A DNA stretch of 64,000 bases. Source: Actinomadura scrupuli. Lineage in GTDB: Bacteria; Actinomycetota; Actinomycetes; Streptosporangiales; Streptosporangiaceae. Location of the stretch: assembly GCF_050971785.1 (NCBI RefSeq), contig NZ_JBPCCU010000012.1:58049-122048 (forward strand), written 5' to 3'. Under the pieces are notes generated by a model, which did not search any database, was not told where the DNA came from, and was given only the letters and a program-made list of their open reading frames with translations. Position 1 is the first letter of the stretch. Each line of letters begins with the position of its first letter. Below, piece by piece: positions 11,165 through 38,453 of the stretch. Both the position numbers and the translations under genes were made by a program.

Positions 11165-11637
11165 GGCGGGCCAGCTGAACGCCCACCCATGGCCGGGACC
11201 TCCACGGCCGCGGTAAAACGGATCACTACCTTCTGGAGCAGCGGCGCCAGGCCCGTTCCTGTAGCGCGAGGTCTGTAGCGCGAGACCCGTAGGGCCGGTC
11301 ACGTCTTCCCGCGCATTTGCCCTGACCACTGATACGCGGCCTCGGGTCGTCGGGCTGTGCACAGGCCGCGCGGGAGTGGTCAGGGCAAAGCAAAGCGAGA
11401 AGCATCCACCACGGCCCAGTTCTGGACAGCCCCGCCTTGGCCGTGAACGGCACGGCCCGCCCAGGCCATGGCCCTCGCGCTCCGCACTGGCCATGAGTCG
11501 CGGTCCTGCCCTGGACAGCCCCGCCCTGGCCGTGATCGGTGTTGTGGCGGGCCCGACCAGGTACTCAGGCGGGATGAGTCGCCGGTCGAGTACGGCTACT
11601 CAGGCGCCGGCGGTTCCGCCCTGCGAGGGTCGGGACA

Positions 11638-12214: not shown

Positions 12215-13396
<1,182 letters not shown>

Positions 13397-13403
13397 GGGC
13401 CGC

Positions 13404-13481
13404 CCCCCACCGGCCCGACAACCTCCGTGATCATGCAATCAACCGACGAACGATTGCATGATCACGGAGGGGTGGGTGGGG
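13404..13481. repeat. palindromic element copy A (19-bp perfect stem, 11-nt loop, flanked by CCCCACC/GGTGGGG outer arms)
   Basis: CCTCCGTGATCATGCAATC (13422-13440), loop AACCGACGAAC, GATTGCATGATCACGGAGG (13452-13470). A near-identical copy lies at 33077-33125. Confidence 0.6.
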
Positions 13482-13663
13482 TCTACACCTTGTCCCGGGG
13501 GCGGTAAACCTGCCAGGGCTCGTTGACCACATGGGGTCAGTCACCTATCTTCCGCCGCGAACCTGAGTCACATTCACGTTCGTACATCGTGTTCGTACCG
13601 GGTCACGAAGTTCGCCTCCGGGCCGGCGCGGATCACGGTCAGACGCGGTCGCGGGAGACGTGA

Positions 13664-16600
13664 ATGCGGTGGATGTGCGCTGTGATGGCCGCCTTTCTCG
13701 TGATGTGCGGCCCGGTCGCCGCCGCTCGGGCCGGGTTCCCCCAGGGCCCGCCCAACGACCCGTCGTACGCCCCGGCCGAAGCCCCGGGTGAGTGCCGCAA
13801 CGTGCCCGACGGGGAACAGCACAATCTCTACTCGTTCATGCCGCGCTGCACTCCGGGCGCCAGGGACCCGGAGAACGCCTCGGGCATGTCGGTGGACACC
13901 GCCTGGCGCGACTACACCACCGGCTCACCCGACGTGGTGATCGCCTATGTCGAGGGCGGCATCAACTGGCACAACGGCGACGCCGCCGAACTGGCCGACA
14001 AGGTCTATCTCAACACCGGAGAGCTGCCCAGGCCGGCGGGCTCGGCCGGGTACGACCGTGACGGCGACGGGGCGGTCACCGCGGCCGACTACGCCGCCGA
14101 CCCCAAGGTGCGCGACGCCAACGGCAACGGCCGGATCGATCCGGAGGACCTGATCGTCGCGTTCTCCGACGGCACCGACGGCGACCACAACGGGTTCACC
14201 GACGACGTCGCGGGCTGGGACTTCTACGAGGGCCAGAACGACCCGGCCACCTACGACGCGACCTACGGCCACGCCAACGGGCAGATGAAGACGCTGGCGG
14301 CGCAGACCGACAACGGCGTCGGCGGTGCGGGGATCTGCCCCGAGTGCCGGATCCTGCCGATCCGGGCGGGCCAGGAGGCGCTCGACCGCACCGACGACCT
14401 CGCCCAGGCCTGGCTGTACGCGGCGCACATGGGCGCCAAGGTCATCGTCAGCACCACCGCGGACCTGGGGTACTCCTCGTACGCGCGCCAGGTCGTGGAG
14501 AAGCTGTGGCACGACGGTGTGGTCATCGTCGAGTCCAGCAACGACTTCGACTCCACCGACCACCAGGGCGGCATGTACTGGCCGCATGTGATCCCCGGCA
14601 ACGGGGTCGTCGCCAACACGGTCGGCGTGCCCGCGCCGCTGGCCAACACGCTGACCACGACCTTCCGGACCCGGTCCGACCTGACCTCGTACGGCGCGAA
14701 GGCGATGTTCTCGGTGGCCACGACCGGCGGCTCCACCTCCGAGTCGACCCCCACGACCGGCGGCGTCTTCGGGCTGCTGATGTCGTACGGCCTGAAGACC
14801 GGCCCGGGGACGGGCCTGAAGACCGGCGGACCGCTGACCAACGCCGAGGCCGTACAGGTGCTGCGCGCCACCGCGAGCGACATCGACGACCCGTCGCTGC
14901 CCTGGCCGGGCAAGCCGGGCTGGGACCGACAGTACGGCTACGGACGACCCAACGTCACCAAGGCGCTGCGGGCGATCTCGCGGGGCGACGTGCCGCCGGT
15001 CGGCTGGATCTCCAGCCCCGACTGGTACGCCCTGTACGACCCGACCCGTACCTCCTCGGTCGAGGTCACCGGGCATGTCGCCGCGCCGCGCTCGCCCGGC
15101 TACCGCTACGAGCTCCAGTGGGCACCGGGCATCGAGCCCGCCGACTCCGACTTCCGCACGGGCGGCTCGGGCACCGGCACCTCGGCGTACGACGGCCGGA
15201 TCGGCACGCTGGACCTGACGAAGGTGCCGCGCTCGGTGTGGGCCGCGCAGTACACCCAGTCGAAGGACAAGGCGCTGTCGGCCAGCGAGCAGTACACCGT
15301 GACGCTGCGGCTGCGAGTCTGGGACAAGGCCGGGCGCATGGGCGAGGAGCGCCGCGCCATCGCCGTCCACCACGACCCGTCGTGGCGGGCGGGCTTCCCG
15401 ATCAGGACGGGGACCAGCGGAGAGAGCCAGCCGGCGCTGGCCGACCTGCAGGGCACCGGCCGGCAGGCGCTGGTCTACGGCGACGCGGACGGACGGGTGC
15501 ACGCCCGTGACGCGGTGAGCGGCGCGGAGCTGCCGGGCTGGCCGGTGACCACCCGGCCGACCGTTCCCCAGCGCGCCTACCCCGGCATCGACCCCGGTCA
15601 CGAGCCGGTGCTGGCGCCGGTGGCGATCGGCGACCTCACCCACCAGGGCAGGCTCGCGGTGGTCGTCACCAGCACGACGGGCCGCACCTACGCCTTCGAC
15701 GCCGGCGGCAAGGCACTGTCCGGCTGGCCGAAGACGCTCGACACCGGCGTGACGAGACCACCGATCCCCCGGCCCGCGCTCGACTACACCCGGCTGCCCG
15801 CCCGGGGCGCGACCGCCGCTCCGGTGCTCGTCGACCTCGACGGCGACCACCGGCTCGACGTGGTCCAGGCGGGCTGGGACGGACGCCTGCACGCCTGGCG
15901 GCCGGACGGGTCGGACCTGCCCGGCTGGCCGGTCAAGGTGAGCATCGACGCGGCGCCGGCCGCCGGGTATGTGAAGATCAACGACCAGAAGCTGGACGCC
16001 ACCCCCGCGGTGGCGGACCTGGACGGCGACGGCAAGCCGGAGATCGTCGTCCGCTCGCAGTACTCCGAGAGCAAGGGCGGCGGGGAACAGTTCTACGGCG
16101 CCAACCACGCCTTCGCCTACCACGCCGACGGCAGCCCCGTCGCGGGCTGGCCGGTGCGCATGTCGTCGATCATGACGTTCTACGGCAGTGCCCAGGAGTT
16201 CGTCACCGAGGCGGTCAACCAGCCGGTGGTGGCCGATGTGGACGGCGACGGCAAGGACGAGGTGGCCACCGGTCCGTCGTTCGCGCCGACCTACCTCATC
16301 TCCGGTACCGGCAGGATCCTCAAGAACTACGGGCCGCTGGAGAACCCGGCGGCCGGCCTGTCACCGAAGGCCGTCCTCAACGGCAACCTGCCGGTGGACA
16401 TCCCGGCGTCCTTCACCACCACCGGCGCCTTCGGGCGCTTCGGGCTGTTCGGGCGGCTGGGCTACACCGAGGCGGGCTCGGGCGGCGTCTCGCTGGCGGC
16501 CGCCCTGCTCTTCCCCGGCAGCGGGGTCGGGGTCGGCAACTACGAGCGCGGCTACGACGCGGCCACCTCGCTGCCCGTGCCGGGATTCCCGAAGGCGCGG

Positions 16601-17176
16601 ACCGGCCTGGGCTTCCTCGGCGCGCCGGTGGTCGCCGACGTCACCGGCGACGGAAAGGCCGAGGTCATCGACGGCGGGGACACCTCCACCCTGCACGCCT
16701 TCTCCCCCGGCGGCTCCGCCACCGGCACCACGGTGCACTTCACCGGCGGCTGGACGATCTGGTCCCCCACGACCGGCGACCTCGACGCGGACGGCAGGAC
16801 CGACCTGGTGACCATGACCCGGGAGGGCTATCTGTTCGCGTGGTCCACCCCGGGCACGGCGGCGTCCAACACCGAATGGTGGACCTACCACCACGACGAG
16901 TGGCGCACCGGGCGCTACGGGCTGGACACCCGCCCGCCCGGCGTCCTGCGCCGTCCGGCCCGCCAGGGGACGGCGCTGACCTTCACCGCCCCGGGTGACG
17001 ACTGGTACGCCGGCCGGGTCACCTCCTACCTGGTGACGGCCGGCGGCCGTACGACCACCGTCCCCGCCACCGTCCCCGCCGGCTCCGTCCAGACCCTGCC
17101 GGTGCCCGCCGGAGCCGTGACCGTGCAGGCCGTCGACGACGGCGGCAACCTGAGCCCGGCCCTGGCGGTGCCCTGA
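13664..17176 (+). CDS. secreted S8 (subtilisin)-like peptidase domain protein with C-terminal FG-GAP/VCBS-type repeats
   Basis: 1170 aa with signal peptide MRWMCAVMAAFLVMCGPVAAARA. S8-like His region (YGHANGQM...GVGGAGICPECRILPIRAG) and Ser region (GGSTSESTPTTGG). More than 6 FG-GAP-like Ca-binding repeats (ADLDGDGKPEIV, VDLDGDHRLDVV, VADVDGDGKDEVATG, TGDLDADGRTDLV). Confidence 0.55.
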   Translation: MRWMCAVMAAFLVMCGPVAAARAGFPQGPPNDPSYAPAEAPGECRNVPDGEQHNLYSFMPRCTPGARDPENASGMSVDTAWRDYTTGSPDVVIAYVEGGINWHNGDAAELADKVYLNTGELPRPAGSAGYDRDGDGAVTAADYAADPKVRDANGNGRIDPEDLIVAFSDGTDGDHNGFTDDVAGWDFYEGQNDPATYDATYGHANGQMKTLAAQTDNGVGGAGICPECRILPIRAGQEALDRTDDLAQAWLYAAHMGAKVIVSTTADLGYSSYARQVVEKLWHDGVVIVESSNDFDSTDHQGGMYWPHVIPGNGVVANTVGVPAPLANTLTTTFRTRSDLTSYGAKAMFSVATTGGSTSESTPTTGGVFGLLMSYGLKTGPGTGLKTGGPLTNAEAVQVLRATASDIDDPSLPWPGKPGWDRQYGYGRPNVTKALRAISRGDVPPVGWISSPDWYALYDPTRTSSVEVTGHVAAPRSPGYRYELQWAPGIEPADSDFRTGGSGTGTSAYDGRIGTLDLTKVPRSVWAAQYTQSKDKALSASEQYTVTLRLRVWDKAGRMGEERRAIAVHHDPSWRAGFPIRTGTSGESQPALADLQGTGRQALVYGDADGRVHARDAVSGAELPGWPVTTRPTVPQRAYPGIDPGHEPVLAPVAIGDLTHQGRLAVVVTSTTGRTYAFDAGGKALSGWPKTLDTGVTRPPIPRPALDYTRLPARGATAAPVLVDLDGDHRLDVVQAGWDGRLHAWRPDGSDLPGWPVKVSIDAAPAAGYVKINDQKLDATPAVADLDGDGKPEIVVRSQYSESKGGGEQFYGANHAFAYHADGSPVAGWPVRMSSIMTFYGSAQEFVTEAVNQPVVADVDGDGKDEVATGPSFAPTYLISGTGRILKNYGPLENPAAGLSPKAVLNGNLPVDIPASFTTTGAFGRFGLFGRLGYTEAGSGGVSLAAALLFPGSGVGVGNYERGYDAATSLPVPGFPKARTGLGFLGAPVVADVTGDGKAEVIDGGDTSTLHAFSPGGSATGTTVHFTGGWTIWSPTTGDLDADGRTDLVTMTREGYLFAWSTPGTAASNTEWWTYHHDEWRTGRYGLDTRPPGVLRRPARQGTALTFTAPGDDWYAGRVTSYLVTAGGRTTTVPATVPAGSVQTLPVPAGAVTVQAVDDGGNLSPALAVP

Positions 17177-30930: not shown

Positions 30931-30962
30931 TCAATGTTTGCCCACAGACAGAGAGACCTTTG

Positions 30963-33038
30963 ATGGATGCCATCACCACCGGGATCGGTGTACTCCTCGC
31001 CGTCGTGCTGCTCATCGTTCTGGGCACGTTCTTCACCCTCACCCGGCTCTTCCGCAAGGTCGAGCAGGGCAAGGTCCTGATCGTCTCCAAGATCAAGAAG
31101 GTGGACGTCACCTTCACCGGGGCGATCGTGCTGCCGGTGCTGCACAAGGCCGAGGTGATGGACATCTCGGTGAAGACCATCGAGATCCACCGGACCGGCA
31201 AAGAGGGTCTGATCTGCCAGGACAACATTCGCGCCGACATCCGCATCACGTTCTTCGTCCGGGTCAACAAGACCGTCGAGGACGTGATCCAGGTGGCGCA
31301 GGCCATCGGCACCGACCGGGCCAGCCACGAGGACACGCTGCAGGTGCTGTTCGCCGCCAAGTTCGCCGAGGCCCTCAAGACCGTGGGCAAGCAGCTCGAC
31401 TTCGTCGACCTCTACACCCACCGGCACGAGTTCCGTGACCGGATCATCCAGATCATCGGCACCGACCTCAACGGTTACCACCTCGAGGACGCCGCCATCG
31501 ACTTCCTCGAGCAGACCCCGCTGTCGAGCCTGGACCCGTCCAACATCCTCGACGCGCAGGGCATCCGCAAGATCACTGAGCTGACGGCGATCGAGCACGT
31601 CCGCACCAACGAGTTCCAGCGGACCGAGGAGAAGGAGATCACCCGCCAGAACGTCGACGCGCGGGAGGCCATCCTCGAACTGGAACGCCGGCAGGCCGAC
31701 GCCGAGAACAAGAAGAAGCGCGAGATCGAGACCGTACGGGCCCGCGAGGAGGCGGAGATCGCCCGGGTCCAGGCGGAGGAGCGGCTCAAGTCGCAGACCG
31801 CGCACATCAAGACCGATGAGCAGCTCGGCATCCAGACCGAGAACCGCAACCGTGAGATCGCCGTCGCGGAGAAGAACAAGGAACGCGTCATCGCCGTCGA
31901 GACCGAGCGGATCGAGAAGGACCGCATGCTCGAGGTGATCGCCCGCGAGCGGGAGACCCAGCTGGCGAGCATCTCCAAGGACAAGGAGGTCGAGGGCGAG
32001 AAGCGGTCGATCGCCGAGGTGATCCGCGAGCGCATCGCGGTGGAGAAGACGGTCGCCGAGCAGGAGGAGAGCATCAAGCGCCTGCGGACGGTCGAAGAGG
32101 CCGAGCGGATGCGCCAGTCCATCGTGATCCAGGCCGAGGCCGAGGCACAGGAGCACCTGGTCAAGGACATCAAGGCAGCCGAGGCGGCCGAGGAGGCGGC
32201 CAAGTTCAAGGCCCGCGAGTCGCTGCTGCTGGCGGAGGCGCGTCAGCAGACCGCCGAGCTCGACACCCAGGCCAAGCTGCGGCTGGCCGAGGGCGTGCAG
32301 GCCGAGGCGGCCGCCGCCGGGCTGGCCGACGTGCAGGTACGCGAGCGCAACGCCGACGCCGTCGAGAAGCTCGGCCGGGCCGAGGCCGTCGTGAACCGGG
32401 AGAAGGGGCTGGCCTCCGCCGAGGCCACGGAGAAGGTCGGCCGCGCCGAGGCCATCGTCAGCCGGGAGATGGCGCTCGCGGGCGCCGACGCGCTGCGCGA
32501 GAAGCTGAAGGGCGAGGCCGAGGGCCTCACCGCGAAGGCCGAGGCCATGGCCGCGATGGGCGACGCGACCCGGCTGCACGAGGAGTACCGGCTGCGGCTG
32601 GAGGCCGAGAAGGACATCCGGATGGCCGGCCTCGACACGCAGCGCAAGGTCGCCGAGGCCCAGGCGAACGTGCTGGCCTCCGGACTGGAGAAGGCCGACA
32701 TCGACATCGTCGGCGGCGACACCATGTTCTTCGACCGCGTCGTCGGCGCCATCGGGATGGGCAAGAGCGTCGACGGGTTCATGGAGCACTCCGAGGTCGG
32801 GCAGACGCTGGCCGGGCCGTGGCTGAACGGGTCGCGGAGCTTCCCCGACGACCTGTCGCATCTGCTCGGCGCGGTGAACACCGACGACGTCAAGAACCTG
32901 ACCCTGTCCGCGCTGCTGCTGCAGCGGATCAAGGCGGGCGGCTCCGAGGCGGGCAAGATGCAGGAGCTGCTGGACACGGCCGAGCGCCTGGGCGTCGCCG
33001 ACTCGGCCGTCTCGTCCCTCGCCGTCATCGAGAAGTGA
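30963..33038 (+). CDS. flotillin family protein (SPFH/band-7, YqiK-like)
   Basis: About 691 aa. N-terminal TM, SPFH domain, and a long E/A/R-rich coiled coil (EAEIARVQAEERLK...). ATG at 30963; the lister used TTG at 30960. Confidence 0.85.
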   Translation: MDAITTGIGVLLAVVLLIVLGTFFTLTRLFRKVEQGKVLIVSKIKKVDVTFTGAIVLPVLHKAEVMDISVKTIEIHRTGKEGLICQDNIRADIRITFFVRVNKTVEDVIQVAQAIGTDRASHEDTLQVLFAAKFAEALKTVGKQLDFVDLYTHRHEFRDRIIQIIGTDLNGYHLEDAAIDFLEQTPLSSLDPSNILDAQGIRKITELTAIEHVRTNEFQRTEEKEITRQNVDAREAILELERRQADAENKKKREIETVRAREEAEIARVQAEERLKSQTAHIKTDEQLGIQTENRNREIAVAEKNKERVIAVETERIEKDRMLEVIARERETQLASISKDKEVEGEKRSIAEVIRERIAVEKTVAEQEESIKRLRTVEEAERMRQSIVIQAEAEAQEHLVKDIKAAEAAEEAAKFKARESLLLAEARQQTAELDTQAKLRLAEGVQAEAAAAGLADVQVRERNADAVEKLGRAEAVVNREKGLASAEATEKVGRAEAIVSREMALAGADALREKLKGEAEGLTAKAEAMAAMGDATRLHEEYRLRLEAEKDIRMAGLDTQRKVAEAQANVLASGLEKADIDIVGGDTMFFDRVVGAIGMGKSVDGFMEHSEVGQTLAGPWLNGSRSFPDDLSHLLGAVNTDDVKNLTLSALLLQRIKAGGSEAGKMQELLDTAERLGVADSAVSSLAVIEK

Positions 33039-33076
33039 CCGAGCATTGACCCCCCACCCCCACCACCCCCGTCCAC

Positions 33077-33125
33077 CCTCCGTGATCACGCAATCAATCG
33101 TCGAACGATTGCATGATCACGGAGG
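33077..33125. repeat. palindromic element copy B (18/19-bp stem, palindromic loop centred on TCGA)
   Basis: CCTCCGTGATCACGCAATC, loop AATCGTCGAAC, GATTGCATGATCACGGAGG. Flanked by CCACCCCC/GGGGTGGGG. Homolog of copy A at 13422-13470. Confidence 0.6.
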
Positions 33126-33149
33126 GGTGGGGCTGGACGAGGAGCGCAC

Positions 33150-36100
33150 GTGACGGACACCGCGAAGACCGGAGCCGGAGCCGGTACGGGGGACACCGCG
33201 GCACGCGATGGCGCGACCGGGAGCGGGGCGGGCGGCACCGCGGCACGCAAGGGCGAGACCGCGGCGGGCGGCACCGTGACCGGCGGGAACGGGGCGGCAG
33301 AGAGCCGGGCAGCAGGAAGCGAGACGGCAGGGAGCGGGGCGGCGGAGAGCGAGACGGGCGGGGTGGCCGGCGCCGGGCTGGACGCGGGCACCTACGAGGT
33401 GCTGCGGGCACGGCTGGCGGAGCAGGCCGCCGAGCTGGCCCGCCGGGCCGGGACGCTGAACGCCCGGCGCCTGGAGGTCTTCGGCAGCGCCGAGCTGCGC
33501 CTGATCGGCACCGAGCGGATCCGCACCGAGCACAACTGCGTCCCCCGCGACGTGGTGTCGGTCGGCGGGTTGATGCTGTTCGGCTACAACGTCTTCATCG
33601 GGCTCAAGCCCGAGACCACCGTGGACGACGTGTTCTCCCTGCACCGGTTCAGCAGGGAGGCGGACGCCTTCCGGTTCGAGGACGCCGTCGACGGGGAGCT
33701 GCCGGGGCTGCTGCGCGACGCCCAGTTCCAGCGGGACTTCGCCGAGCTCTACCGCTACTACCAGGACACCCGGCTCCTGCAGCTACGGCGGACCGACGGC
33801 AAGTTGCTGGCCGTCTTCCAGACCGGCCTGCTGGCCGAGGACGCCAAGGTGCTGCGCTGGGCCATCGCCACCGACGGTTCGGTGACGTACCAGGACGCGC
33901 GGGGTGAGGAGGACCATGTCTTCCCGCCGTCGCACGACTTCGTGTGGACCGAGACCACCCGGGACGACCACGTCCTGGGCCGGCACCCGCACATCTCGAT
34001 CGAGGACGAGCTGTTCGTCGAGACGATCGGCGGCGACCTCACCATCAAGGTGGAGAACAACACCGAGACCGGTGAGGGCATCTACGCCGAGCCCGTGGCC
34101 GAGCCGCTGCAGAGCCTCGCGGACGCCGAGGTGCAGTACGCCCGGGTCGGCTCGCTCATCCTGCTGCGGATCCTGCCGTACAAGGAGACCGAGCGCCGCC
34201 ACCTGGTGTTCAACACGCGGACCAAGAGCGTCGTCCGGCTGGACGGCATCGGGCAGGCCTGCCAGCGCCTGCCGGAGGACCACGGGATCATCTTCCCCGG
34301 CGGCTACTACCTGGCCACCGGCACGGTGAAGACCTTCGACGCCGACGTGGACAGGCTCGAGTACGAGCAGGTCATCCGTTCCGTCAACGGCGAGGACGTG
34401 CTCTACGTCTTCCATGCCCGGGAGGCCGGGCGGTACCTGCTGCTGCCCTACAACCTGATCCGCAAGGAGATCACCAACCCGATCACCTGCCACGGCTACT
34501 CGCTGTTCGACGACGGCACGATGGTGGCCTTCCGCGCCGACGCCGGGGAGCCCACCCGGGTGCACCCCATGCAGGTGTGGCAGACCCCGTACGTCTCCGG
34601 TGCCCACGCCGCCGCCCAGCCGACCGGCACCGGACCGCTGGAGCGGATCGGCAACGCCGACCTGGTGCGCGGCATCTCCGACGCCCTGTCGGTGACCCGG
34701 ATGGTCGACGAGATGGGCACCCTGAGCACCGCGCATCAGGGCAGGTACTGCGAGTCCCTCATCTCGAGCGCGTCGCGGGTGTTCGACCACTACCACTGGC
34801 TGGGCGAGCGAGACCTCGACGACCTCCGTACGCCGCTGTCGGCGGTGCGGTCCACCGCCGAGCAGATGCTGGACGAGTTCGAGAAGGTCCAGTCGCTCAC
34901 CGCCCAGGCGGCGGCCGCCGTGGACGAGGCCGACGCCCGGATCACCTCGATGATCCGGCTGGCCCGGGCCGAGGCTCCGGCGACCGCCGACGCGTGGGTG
35001 ACCCAGCTGGCCGAGCTGCGCCGCGCCCAGGGCCGCCTGGTGACGCTGCGGGAGCTGCGGTACGCCGACGAGGCCCGGATCGACGCGCTCGCCACCGAGC
35101 TGGGCACGGAGCTGGACGCCGCCGCCCAGCGCGCGATCGCCTTCCTGCGGGGCGAGGACGCCTTCGCCGGTTACCGTGCGGAGGTCGACCGGCTGGTCGC
35201 CGAGGCGGAGGCCATCGGCACCGTCGCCGACGCCACCCCGATCGTGACCAGGCTCACCGAGCAGGCGTCCGGGCTGGAGCTGGTCACCGAGATCGTCGGA
35301 TCGGTGGAGATCGCGGACGCCACCGTGCGCACCGGCATCCTGGAGCGGATCGGCGAGGTGCTCGGCGGCGTCAACCGGGCCCGCGCCATCCTGGACGTCA
35401 GGCGGCGCGAACTGCTCGCGCGGGAGGGCCAGGCCCAGTTCGCGGCCGAGTTCGCCCTGCTCGGGCAGTCCGTCACCGGCGCGCTGGCGCTGGCCGACAC
35501 CCCCGACCACTGCGACGAGCAGCTGGCCCGGCTCATGCTGCAACTGGAGAACCTCGAGACCCGCTTCTTCGACGCCGAGGACCCGCAGGCCGGGGCCGGC
35601 CCCGGCGGCGACCGGCTGGCCGAGCTCACGGCCAAGCGGGAGAGCATCTACGACGCGTTCTCGGCGCGCAAGCAGGCCCTGCTGGATGAGCGGGCGCGCA
35701 AGGCCGACCGGCTGGCCGCCTCCGCGACCCGGATCCTGGCGGGCCTGCAGCGCCGGGTCGCCGGCCTGCGCTCGCTCGACGAGGTCAACACCTACTTCGC
35801 CGCCGACCCGATGGTGGTCAAGCTGCGCGCCGTCGCCGACCAGCTGCGCTCGCTGGGCGACGTGGTCCGGGCCGAGGAGCTCGAAGGGAAGGTCAAGACC
35901 GCCCGCCAGGAGGCCGGCCGGACGCTGCGCGACCAGGTCGATCTCTACGACGACGGCGGCGGGACGATCCGGCTGGGCAGGCACCGTTTCGCGGTCAACA
36001 CCCAGCCCGTCGACCTCACGCTGGTCCCGCACGACGGCCGGATGGCCTTCGCGCTCACCGGCACCGACTACCGCGCGCCGGTCCTCGACGAGGCGTTCGA

Positions 36101-38453
36101 GGCCACCCGGCCGTACTGGGACCAGCTGCTCATCTCCGAGTCCGCCGAGGTCTACCGCGCCGAGCACCTCGCCGCCTCGATCCTCGCCGAAGCCGAGACA
36201 CAGGCCGAAACCCAAGCCGAGACGCAAGCAGACGCCCGCACCGGCACCGGTGAGGCCGCCCCCTCGCTGGACGCGCTGCGCGCGGCCGCGGCCGAGGACG
36301 GCGGCCTGCAGGGCATCGTCCGCCGCGCCGCCGAGGCCCGGTACGACGAGGGATACGAGCGCGGCGTACACGACCATGACGCGGCCGTGATCCTCGCCGT
36401 GCTGCTGCGCCTGCACACCGGCGCGGGGCTGCTGCGCTACCCCCCTGACGCGCGCGCCGCGGCTCAGCTGTTCTGGATGTACGGGACCGACGAGGCGGCC
36501 CGGGCCTCCTGGACCACGCGGGCCGGTTCGCTGGCCCGGGCCCGCTCCGCGTTCGGCCGTTCCAGCACGGTCGACGCCCTGTGCGCCGAGCTCGGCTCCG
36601 ACGTCACCGCCTTCCTCCGCGACTCCGGCCTGCGGCCCGGTGAGCTCGCGGGTCAGGCGGGGCTCGCGGGTCAGGCGGGGCTCGCCGGGGAGTACCTGTT
36701 CGAGGAGCTGGCCGGCGACCGGCCCGGGTTCGTGACCAGTGCCGGAGCCAGGGCCCTGCTCCAGGGGTTCGACCGCGCGCTGGGCGGCCCGCAGGCCGAG
36801 TCCCGCCGGCGGTTCGACGACGACCTGCGGGCGCTCGGCGACGATCTGGCCGCCCGGCACCAGCTGGTCGAGGCCTGGCTCGGCTCCTACCTCGGCTCCT
36901 ACCTCGCCGCGAGCGGCCCCGGGGACGGGAGCGTACGGCCGTCGTCCGCGGACCTGCCCGAGGCGGTGGCGATCGAGCTGTGCGGGGGCGGCCTGCCCCG
37001 GTACGAGTCGCCGGCCACCCTCACCGCCACCGCCGACGGGCTCCTCGGCGTCCATCCGCGTATCGTCCAGCGCCGCCTGGAGCTGCGGATCGACGAGTTG
37101 CTGGCCCGGACCCGGCGGTTCCGGACCGAGCGGGTGCCCGCCTTCCGGGCCTACCAGCGGCAGCGCACCGAGCTCGTCGACCGCGAGCGGCGGCGCCTCG
37201 GCCTCGAGGAGTTCCGGCCGAAGGTCATGAGCGCGTTCGTGCGGAACCGGCTCCTCGACGAGGTGTACCTGCCACTGATCGGCGACAACCTGGCCAAGCA
37301 GCTCGGTGCCGCCGGCACCGCCAAGCGCACCGACCAGATGGGCCTGCTGCTGCTCATCTCCCCGCCCGGCTACGGCAAGACCACTCTGATGGAGTACGTC
37401 GCCAGCCGCCTGGGCCTGGTGCTGGTGAAGGTCAACGGACCGGCGCTCGGCCACGGCGTCACCTCGCTGGACCCCGCGGAGGCACCGAACGCCACGGCCC
37501 GCCAGGAGATCGAGAAGATCTCGTTCGCGCTGGAGATGGGCAACAACGTCCTGCTCTACCTCGACGACATCCAGCACACCTCACCCGAGCTGCTGCAGAA
37601 GTTCATCTCGCTGTGCGACGCCCAGCGCCGGATGGAGGGCGTGTGGGAGGGCCGCACCCGGACCTACGACCTGCGCGGCAAGCGGTTCGCCGTCTGCATG
37701 GCAGGCAACCCCTACACCGAGTCGGGTCATCGCTTCCGCATCCCGGACATGCTCGCCAACCGCGCCGACGTGTGGAACCTCGGCGACGTGCTGTCCGGCA
37801 AGGAGGAGCTGTTCTCGCTGAGCTACGTCGAGAACGCGCTGACCTCCAATCCCGTCCTGGCCCCGCTGTCGACCCGGGAGCGCGGCGACATCGAGCTGCT
37901 GGTCCGGCTGGCCGGGGGCGACCAGACCGTGCGGCCCGACCAGCTCGCGCACCCCTACTCGGCCGTCGAGCTCGACCAGATCTTGGCCGTGCTGCGCAAG
38001 CTGCTGCGGGTCCAGCAGATCGTCCTCGCCACCAACCGCGCCTACATCGCCTCCGCGGCACAGGCGGAGGCGTCCCGGACCGAGCCGCCCTTCCAGCTGC
38101 AGGGCTCCTACCGCAACATGAACAAGCTGGCCGAACGGATCGTCCCGGTGATGAACGACGCCGAGCTCGAAGCCATGATCGACGATCACTATCTGGGCGA
38201 GGCGCAGACCCTCACCTCCGGCGCCGAGGCCAACCTGCTCAAGCTGGCCGAGCTGCGGGGCACGCTGACTCCCGGCCAGGCCGGGCGGTGGGCCGAGGTG
38301 AAGGCCGGTTTCGTCCGGGCGCAGGCCCTCGGCGGTGCGCAGGACGACCCGGTGAGCCGGGCGGTCGGTGCCGTCGGGCTGCTCGCCGACCGGGTCGGGT
38401 CGGTCGAGACCGCCATCACCCGTGCCGCCGGCCGGCTGGCGTCCGACAGATGA
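33150..38453 (+). CDS. very large (1767 aa) hypothetical protein with C-terminal AAA_5 (MoxR/dynein-class) ATPase domain
   Basis: GTG start with RBS GAGGAG. N-terminal G/A/T-rich low-complexity region, a central globular plus long helical region, and a C-terminal AAA+ module at nt 37330-37900 (Walker A ISPPGYGKTTL; Walker B LLYLDDIQH; FAVCMAGNPYTESGHRFRIPDMLANRADVW). Confidence 0.7.
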   Translation: MTDTAKTGAGAGTGDTAARDGATGSGAGGTAARKGETAAGGTVTGGNGAAESRAAGSETAGSGAAESETGGVAGAGLDAGTYEVLRARLAEQAAELARRAGTLNARRLEVFGSAELRLIGTERIRTEHNCVPRDVVSVGGLMLFGYNVFIGLKPETTVDDVFSLHRFSREADAFRFEDAVDGELPGLLRDAQFQRDFAELYRYYQDTRLLQLRRTDGKLLAVFQTGLLAEDAKVLRWAIATDGSVTYQDARGEEDHVFPPSHDFVWTETTRDDHVLGRHPHISIEDELFVETIGGDLTIKVENNTETGEGIYAEPVAEPLQSLADAEVQYARVGSLILLRILPYKETERRHLVFNTRTKSVVRLDGIGQACQRLPEDHGIIFPGGYYLATGTVKTFDADVDRLEYEQVIRSVNGEDVLYVFHAREAGRYLLLPYNLIRKEITNPITCHGYSLFDDGTMVAFRADAGEPTRVHPMQVWQTPYVSGAHAAAQPTGTGPLERIGNADLVRGISDALSVTRMVDEMGTLSTAHQGRYCESLISSASRVFDHYHWLGERDLDDLRTPLSAVRSTAEQMLDEFEKVQSLTAQAAAAVDEADARITSMIRLARAEAPATADAWVTQLAELRRAQGRLVTLRELRYADEARIDALATELGTELDAAAQRAIAFLRGEDAFAGYRAEVDRLVAEAEAIGTVADATPIVTRLTEQASGLELVTEIVGSVEIADATVRTGILERIGEVLGGVNRARAILDVRRRELLAREGQAQFAAEFALLGQSVTGALALADTPDHCDEQLARLMLQLENLETRFFDAEDPQAGAGPGGDRLAELTAKRESIYDAFSARKQALLDERARKADRLAASATRILAGLQRRVAGLRSLDEVNTYFAADPMVVKLRAVADQLRSLGDVVRAEELEGKVKTARQEAGRTLRDQVDLYDDGGGTIRLGRHRFAVNTQPVDLTLVPHDGRMAFALTGTDYRAPVLDEAFEATRPYWDQLLISESAEVYRAEHLAASILAEAETQAETQAETQADARTGTGEAAPSLDALRAAAAEDGGLQGIVRRAAEARYDEGYERGVHDHDAAVILAVLLRLHTGAGLLRYPPDARAAAQLFWMYGTDEAARASWTTRAGSLARARSAFGRSSTVDALCAELGSDVTAFLRDSGLRPGELAGQAGLAGQAGLAGEYLFEELAGDRPGFVTSAGARALLQGFDRALGGPQAESRRRFDDDLRALGDDLAARHQLVEAWLGSYLGSYLAASGPGDGSVRPSSADLPEAVAIELCGGGLPRYESPATLTATADGLLGVHPRIVQRRLELRIDELLARTRRFRTERVPAFRAYQRQRTELVDRERRRLGLEEFRPKVMSAFVRNRLLDEVYLPLIGDNLAKQLGAAGTAKRTDQMGLLLLISPPGYGKTTLMEYVASRLGLVLVKVNGPALGHGVTSLDPAEAPNATARQEIEKISFALEMGNNVLLYLDDIQHTSPELLQKFISLCDAQRRMEGVWEGRTRTYDLRGKRFAVCMAGNPYTESGHRFRIPDMLANRADVWNLGDVLSGKEELFSLSYVENALTSNPVLAPLSTRERGDIELLVRLAGGDQTVRPDQLAHPYSAVELDQILAVLRKLLRVQQIVLATNRAYIASAAQAEASRTEPPFQLQGSYRNMNKLAERIVPVMNDAELEAMIDDHYLGEAQTLTSGAEANLLKLAELRGTLTPGQAGRWAEVKAGFVRAQALGGAQDDPVSRAVGAVGLLADRVGSVETAITRAAGRLASDR

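Follow-up and report, generated by a model that had tools for sequence, protein, structure and literature searches.

A lineage-specific family of REP/TRIT-like gene-end palindromes in Actinomadura and related Streptosporangiales

A 64,000-nucleotide stretch of the Actinomadura scrupuli genome, referred to here as the window, carries two almost identical palindromes, one (copy A) behind a tuf paralog and the other (copy B) inside a flotillin operon, and these raise the question of whether we are dealing with the binding sites of a regulator, with transcription terminators, or with members of a repeat family. The preliminary description of copy A as a palindrome of roughly 50 nt with a 19-bp perfect stem and an 11-nt loop is borne out by an inverted-repeat search, in which the arms are 100% complementary across the 11-nt spacer, and the outer arms that it reported, CCCCACC (13405-13411) and GGTGGGG (13475-13481), are present and are paired by RNAfold. 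The stem begins 25 nt after the tuf-paralog stop codon (TGA, 13394-13396) and ends 193 nt before the start of the S8/FG-GAP gene. The nearly identical second element placed at 33077-33125 is there as well, with arms at 33077-33095 and 33107-33125 that contain one mismatch (C-A on the plus strand and G-U on the minus strand), flanked by the outer arms CCACCCTCCG and CGGAGGGGTGGGG. The coordinates of these and other features are given in Table 1.

Table 1. Palindromic elements, neighboring genes and sister-family loci (window coordinates unless a locus is named; a dot denotes no strand).
Feature	Coordinates	Strand	Remarks
tuf paralog (EF-Tu, 393 aa; GTP_EFTU, D2 and D3 domains)	12215..13396	+	Upstream gene; copy A follows its 3' end
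Copy A, whole element	13405..13481	.	Includes outer arms; sits 3' of tuf paralog
Copy A, left arm CCTCCGTGATCATGCAATC	13422..13440	.	CCTCCG + TGATCATGCAATC (conserved box)
Copy A, spacer/apex AACCGACGAAC	13441..13451	.	Family consensus GTTCGACGAAC; central CGACG conserved (alignment)
Copy A, right arm GATTGCATGATCACGGAGG	13452..13470	.	GATTGCATGATCA + CGGAGG
Promoter-like site TTGACC-17-TATCTT, putative, for S8/FG-GAP gene	13523..13551	+	Consensus match and conservation only
S8 peptidase/FG-GAP repeat gene	13664..17176	+	Downstream of copy A; product 100% identical to a protein of A. scrupuli
Flotillin/SPFH family gene	30960..33038	+	Upstream of copy B; homologues contain PF01145
Copy B	33073..33132	.	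Between flotillin gene and DUF3686/AAA gene; 72.9 bits against model R1
DUF3686/DUF7902/AAA ATPase gene	33150..38453	+	Downstream of copy B
Sister-family loci	L043-L080; L030:907-960; L039:7326-7383		L043-L080 are metagenome contigs

The 19-mer arm occurs four times in the window when up to three mismatches are allowed, against 0.01 occurrences expected from shuffles, and the looser pattern CGTGATC-N15-45-GATCACG matches only copies A and B (0.08 expected); neither the pattern scan nor the covariance model R1 described below finds a further copy, strict or diverged, within the 64 kb. The hairpins predicted for both strands of the two copies have folding energies of -48 to -64 kcal/mol (z-scores of -4.2 to -6.9 relative to shuffled controls); copy A itself gives -55.8 kcal/mol on the plus strand and -52.2 on the minus strand, and scores 72.3 bits against model R1. 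The 49-nt core has a GC content of 53%, compared with 70% for the window. The lack of a U-tract recorded in the preliminary description holds for both copies, since a terminator-pattern scan has no matches and the 10-nt tails past the outer stems are TCTACACCTT and CTGGACGAGG. A canonical intrinsic terminator, with a GC-rich hairpin followed by a U-tract, was set aside on these grounds. Rfam returns one tRNA only for the whole window at gathering thresholds, and its matches to the element at E ≤ 10 are limited to spurious microRNA hairpins and a single weak hit that lies outside the element.

Several other features of the window were recorded. Upstream of the tuf paralog, at 11316-11389, is a strong inverted repeat with 27-nt arms that are 85% complementary (TTTGCCCTGACCACTGATACGCGGCCT / AGGCCGCGCGGGAGTGGTCAGGGCAAA), and whose sequence is unrelated to that of copies A and B. 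A C-rich run, CCCCCCACCCCCACCACCCCCGTCCACC, occupies positions 33050-33076 immediately to the left of copy B and is G-quadruplex-prone on the minus strand, and its CCCCCCACC motif is also present at copy A. Small open reading frames that start at an ATG within the arms were discounted, as they are without conservation and one that runs antisense to tuf is typical high-GC noise. Exact-protein look-ups with the flotillin and tuf products of the window matched no record.

Copies A and B belong to a lineage-specific, dispersed family of palindromic repeats of about 55-65 nt in A. scrupuli and related Thermomonosporaceae and Streptosporangiaceae. A genome scan with one genome per species, in which two boxes were sought with a free spacer between them, recovered at least 35 loci, with at least 25 strict copies in a single related metagenome-assembled genome (MAG), RYN_229. 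This is a close relative, with a flotillin that is 95% identical in protein and 86% in nucleotide sequence. Other hosts among the matches listed are Actinomadura vinacea, A. rugatobispora, Streptosporangiaceae MAGs and a few other Actinomycetota MAGs. Model R1, built from 28 copies, adds five diverged copies to the RYN_229 loci (E < 0.001), and extrapolation from these loci, as distinct from a count, suggests that the genome has about one copy per few tens of kb; the known A. scrupuli copies are the two within 64 kb. The preliminary description proposed counting copies and would read a large number as a generic REP with no particular regulatory role, and RYN_229, with at least 25 strict copies and the diverged ones, speaks for that reading. 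Searches of viral contigs, plasmids and phages yielded no copies of the family. Full-text literature searches found no paper for the arm sequence and nothing relevant for Actinomadura combined with palindromic repeats, and both this family and a sister family described below appear to be undescribed. One copy, whose outer stem is long and perfect, was found in a contig of 238 kb and 68% GC that is labelled as an Albidovulum sp. MAG (L006, JBAOHB010000022.1); its occurrence in an alphaproteobacterial MAG could reflect either a binning error or horizontal transfer.

The family consensus is (C)nCCCTCCG-TGATCATGCAATC-GTTCGACGAAC-GATTGCATGATCA-CGGAGGG(G)n, and it is palindromic through its very centre. 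Its constant part is the 13-nt box with a flanking CG (CG-TGATCATGCAATC), present as an inverted pair whose members are separated by 5-20 nt across the family, and solo boxes are nearly absent, with one in 42 loci. The basal stem is C-rich on one side and G-rich on the other (CCCTCCG...CGGAGGG), and it encloses a variable apical stem with a CGAC-containing apex. About half of the copies add 5-11 outer pairs of differing sequence, such as CTTCCG/CGGAAG, CACCG/CGGTG, ACTCCG/CGGAGT and CGTGG/CCACG, and the outer stem has a mean of 4.0 contiguous pairs, compared with 2.2 when the flanks of different copies are paired with each other. Length variants form new apical stems, as with CCGTGCAC/GTGCACGG in L006, and diverged copies have compensated changes within the box itself, including GCGACC/GGTCGC, GGGATC/GATCCC, TGATCTTGCA/TGCAAGATCA and TGATCTC/GAGATCA, and the deepest common signature is the base CGTGATC...GATCACG. 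In a model-based alignment, which was fitted to the structure and in which each element is counted on both strands, 18 of the 25 pairs have changes on both sides, and none of 500 shuffles reached the observed covariation. The hairpin is thus maintained by compensatory changes. The spacers are genome-specific: RYN_229 uses GTTCGACGAAC (several identical copies and one-step variants), those of RYN_225 are GC-rich, and GGCGGGGKC is found in the two Actinomadura species. Copies from one genome are alike, and those of RYN_229 are grouped in a star-like cloud about a single consensus. In one locus (L017:5285-5348) an element sits within the apex of another, and in a second (L019:2035-2108) an extra solo box lies in the loop of a larger hairpin, and these two cases hint that hairpin tips are sites of insertion or duplication. 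We also considered that the GGAGG of the right arm might hide a downstream Shine-Dalgarno sequence, but this fits very few copies (e.g. L002) and was discarded as a function of the family in general.

The elements are situated at the ends of genes. With flanking genes called by third-position GC bias, all 37 strict copies listed are either intergenic or reach no further into a gene than its last codons, the median distance from stop codon to box is 15 nt, and the distance is at most 20 nt for 73% of copies; the TGA of the element itself is the stop codon of five open reading frames. Thirty-five of the strict copies listed have both flanks callable, with 16 between convergent genes, 17 in tandem contexts and two doubtful divergent cases that adjoin open reading frames of only 80-100 aa. 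In many of the convergent pairs the element makes up approximately the entire spacer, and when the main and sister families are taken together convergent contexts outnumber divergent ones by 27 to 3 (p = 8e-6). The neighboring genes are unrelated, and encode EF-Tu, S8 peptidase, flotillin, DUF3686, PI-PLC, DeoR, SDR, FAD oxidase, IlvD, PfkB and beta-lactamase products. No transposase was seen near the elements, and Pfam scans of ten genes between or beside element pairs identified housekeeping families only; those between pairs are ordinary (PI-PLC, DeoR, SDR and FAD oxidase).

These positions bear directly on the view that the palindrome is the operator of a dimeric regulator, with TGATCA and GCAATC-N-GATTGC half-sites controlling the S8/FG-GAP and DUF3686 genes. 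Such an operator is suggested by the perfect palindrome, its two half-sites and its place in front of two plus-strand genes, but the 5-20 nt range of half-site spacings would be intolerable for a rigid dimer on duplex DNA, and the 16 copies between convergent genes are at places where there is no promoter. Most of the tandem copies are closer to the upstream stop than to the downstream start, copy A is upstream of the conserved promoter-like region rather than over it, the neighbors share no common function, and the sequences in and around the box covary in a manner that preserves the hairpin. We take variable spacing, gene-end and convergent position, unrelated neighbors and covariation together to exclude an operator, and regard this explanation as extremely improbable. 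The preliminary description, which had preferred an operator or a REP-type repeat to a generic terminator, thus loses its first option to the spacing, the gene-end rather than promoter position and the hairpin covariation, and retains its second, as the element is multi-copy and extragenic, hugs stop codons, has unrelated neighbors and is present or absent at shared sites. A false lead is also removed, in that the two palindromes do not mark the tuf paralog, the S8 peptidase and the flotillin operon as parts of one regulon.

Comparison of orthologous sites shows that copies are gained or lost between related genomes. In a metagenome contig (L039) whose first 1,181 bp (L039:1-1181) are 94% nucleotide-identical to the tuf paralog, an unrelated 14-bp hairpin lies at the place of copy A. 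The spacer between the convergent PI-PLC and IlvD genes contains the element in RYN_229, a different palindrome with 25-bp arms in L041 (87% identical protein), and a plain GC hairpin in Thermomonospora echinospora. In three other cases (L007/L009, L008/L026 and L025/L032) orthologous copies are kept in both species, and between L007 and L009 two pairs of the apical stem have changed with compensation, from TT/AA to CC/GG. Where relatives lack the element they have other hairpins, so that what is constant at these sites is a hairpin as such, with turnover as to which one is present, and this suggests that a hairpin is wanted there. In L039 there are 6 kb of genes (L039:1-7261; a Ser/Thr kinase with PASTA domains, an FHA-ABC transporter and others) between the tuf paralog and the S8/FG-GAP gene, which are directly adjacent in A. 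scrupuli, indicating a rearrangement at the site of the element. The L041 palindrome (L041:7158-7219, CCGATGATGTTGTTCTGGCCCCCTC / GAGGGGGTCAGAACAACATCATCGG) fills the PI-PLC/IlvD spacer and may be a member of another repeat family; no second copy of it is present in the loci examined.

Copy B offers a second view of turnover. The order of the flotillin and DUF3686 genes is the same in relatives (L036-L038), where the intergenic spacers are 12-104 nt long as in a tight operon, and three relatives lack copy B in the orthologous spacer: RYN_229, with a 49-nt spacer, and two more, one of them an Actinoallomurus genome. When the filled spacer is aligned against the empty ones, no clean insertion boundary or target duplication is seen for copy B, and the filled and empty spacers align only at the downstream ribosome-binding site and start codon. 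The DUF3686/AAA gene begins with a low-complexity N-terminal extension rich in Gly, Thr and Ala (33150-33368, about 190 nt) that is missing from the RYN_229 and Actinoallomurus orthologues.

What, then, do these elements do? We think it probable that they are lineage-specific REP/TRIT-like gene-end hairpins that serve on both strands as terminators, attenuators or 3'-end protectors, a role that we infer from position and structure. Transcription of an element from either strand would give the upstream message a very stable 3'-terminal stem-loop of 19-28 bp, which would stop or attenuate RNA polymerase, block 3' exonucleases, or do both, as has been proposed for long U-poor hairpins in GC-rich actinomycetes. 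Such a role at transcript 3' ends is favored by the location at gene ends and by the finding that these sites can hold other hairpins instead. Copy A would close the tuf-paralog transcription unit ahead of a promoter belonging to the S8/FG-GAP gene, which fits with the promoter-like site and the conserved S8 leader downstream of it; sequence conservation with a relative resumes downstream of copy A, at the promoter-like site. Copy B would be a recent insertion into the flotillin-DUF3686 operon and a partial barrier at most. A strong terminator within an operon would be polar, and the position of copy B therefore counts against a simple terminator.

The literature on actinobacterial termination points in both directions. 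Term-seq 3' ends in Streptomyces are associated with long, very stable hairpins with only three or four U residues in the next 10 nt (PMC12207403), which makes a role for U-poor hairpins plausible in this phylum, and our elements resemble these in being long, very stable, close to gene ends and followed by few U residues. Relatives carry ordinary GC hairpins at sites shared with the family. Unlike ordinary terminators, which are mutually unrelated in sequence, the family copies share the 13-nt box, which is AT-richer than the genome, and a common box implies that the copies share either descent or a recognition requirement. The mycobacterial RNA polymerase is reported to require a U-tract at intrinsic terminators (PMC3993855), and predicted TRITs overlap very little with mapped termination sites in Mycobacterium tuberculosis (bioRxiv 10.1101/2022.06.01.494293), which leaves a termination role for this class of element unproven; both reports count against a simple terminator.

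The two strands of the element appear equivalent. There is no sense-strand bias in G-U pairs, with 18 sense and 16 antisense pairs across 17 tandem contexts, only 10 of which have the more stable hairpin on the sense strand. With no asymmetry between strands, nothing shows selection on RNA rather than on DNA, although two-way use between convergent genes would also erase a strand bias. The palindromic centre, the nested element of L017 and the solo arm of L019 point to a copying or repair process at the DNA level, and we propose that the family would be spread or homogenized by a DNA-level process that requires the hairpin, such as an HUH-type single-strand transposase acting in trans, or gene conversion. 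No direct target-site duplication flanks the elements, the flanks being inverted complements of each other (e.g. CCG...CGG); this speaks against a DDE-type MITE and would fit an HUH single-strand mechanism or gene conversion.

The same features permit a reading in which the element is purely selfish or neutral non-autonomous palindromic DNA that is found near stop codons only because insertion is tolerated there, with the hairpin needed by a mobilizing enzyme or by intrastrand repair. Presence/absence polymorphism at the copy B site, the genome-specific spacer 'flavours' and star-like cloud in RYN_229, nesting and the solo arm in a loop, the lack of a G-U bias, and a consensus that is palindromic through its centre, which is unnecessary for an RNA hairpin, are all as expected of such DNA. 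However, relatives without the element have other hairpins at the same place, orthologous copies are kept between species, and a mobilizing gene was not found among the scanned neighbors, and we consider the selfish reading possible but unlikely. A further alternative is that the element is a site on DNA, as duplex or as cruciform, for a protein that handles the chromosome, such as a nucleoid-associated protein or gyrase, or that it is a tag resembling an uptake signal. Gyrase acts at REP/BIME elements, and paired DUS and USS sequences are found at terminators in Neisseria and Haemophilus; a strict 13-nt box amid variable surroundings, and symmetry on both strands with no RNA-strand bias, would suit a site of this kind. 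Yet uptake and recognition tags are mostly single, whereas one solo box is present in the 42 loci, and the diverged copies alter the box while retaining pairing, so that we judge a DNA site to be improbable.

Judged by its published description, the TRIT element of Mycobacterium is the closest analogue. TRITs are palindromic, mostly bidirectional, present at about 147 copies per genome, confined to one lineage, and closely tied to stop codons, where they often run into the last part of the coding sequence (Gardner et al. 2011, PMC3152330). The present element is similarly conserved in sequence and structure, is bidirectional, and has a narrow distribution around stop codons (the 15-nt median and five open reading frames ending inside it), but its hosts are Actinomadura and Streptosporangiaceae (Streptosporangiales) rather than Mycobacterium. 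This likeness rests on the description of TRIT, and no Rfam family matches the element.

There are also clear parallels with REP and REPIN sequences. These too are short extragenic palindromes in which a conserved unit forms an inverted pair, here with a 5-20 nt spacer and rare solo boxes. REP and REPIN sequences number tens to hundreds per genome; of the present family, at least 25 strict and five diverged copies are known from RYN_229 and two from 64 kb of A. scrupuli. Genome-specific master sequences are typical of REPIN populations, and the element family has them as well. REPIN-RAYT systems are described as mostly vertically inherited (Bertels and Rainey 2011, PMC3116915, PMC3337134; RAREFAN preprint 10.1101/2022.05.22.493013), and apparently vertical inheritance is shared by our element, for which searches of plasmid and phage collections gave no match. 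Unlike REP and REPIN sequences, the element has no GTAG-type tetranucleotide at the base of the hairpin, where a C-rich (C)nCCCTCCG flank is followed by TGATCA with the base CGTGATC. No RAYT or other Y1 transposase was found among about 0.4 Mb of scattered loci. REPIN-RAYT systems have been described mainly in proteobacteria. We propose that the element works in the manner of REP and TRIT elements, and class it by resemblance to these rather than as a member of either named family.

Two other classes of small repeat were considered. MITEs such as the Correia elements of Neisseria are likewise small, non-coding and multi-copy, with terminal inverted repeats and a hairpin in the transcript, and Correia elements can serve in termination or as substrates of RNase III. 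Our element differs from these in that direct target-site duplications are lacking and that no insertion sequence was seen whose ends match and that could be the parent, and a DDE-derived MITE was rejected because the flanks are complementary and inverted and there is no clean boundary between filled and empty sites. Integron attC sites, which have conserved R/L boxes and stand in arrays of co-oriented cassettes beside an integrase, were rejected because the present copies are scattered, are found with every orientation of the flanking genes and do not form arrays.

These findings have some practical use. Model R1 is an easily applied annotation aid for an undescribed repeat family in Actinomadura and other Streptosporangiales, where gene-end signals are poorly understood, and near-identical natural hairpins behind many different genes are a ready set with which to test how transcripts end without U-tracts in GC-rich actinomycetes. 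The conserved box in a covarying stem could be used as bait for a hairpin-binding protein, an idea raised earlier for the mycobacterial TRITs.

The element is not alone in this architecture. A metagenome scan with a variant box identified a sister family, GTGATCTTGCA - covarying inner stem - TCGAC - TGCAAGATCAC, on about 30 high-GC soil contigs, with the same architecture and apex motif as the main family, and the two co-occur in RYN_229. Sister-family elements are in 11 convergent, seven tandem and one divergent context, and several open reading frames stop at the TGA of the element. We raise as a tentative and rather doubtful idea that the two families form part of a large superfamily of actinomycete gene-end hairpins, with an invariant CGTGATC/GATCACG base and a TCGAC-type apex, that would be read by a dedicated hypothetical protein: either a hairpin-specific single-strand transposase, as an actinobacterial counterpart of REPIN-RAYT systems, or a stem-binding factor that helps to end or process transcripts in GC-rich genomes without U-tract terminators. 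The sister-family pattern also picked up tandem or overlapping GTGATCTTGCAAGATCAC palindromes on unrelated contigs of 33-40% GC (L045, L066, L073 and L075), and these are probably a different element. In L039 a sister-family hairpin lies in the 5' leader of the S8/FG-GAP gene; at the equivalent position in the window (13588-13640) only the right base GATCACGG is left, and the sequence otherwise has the look of a decayed relic.
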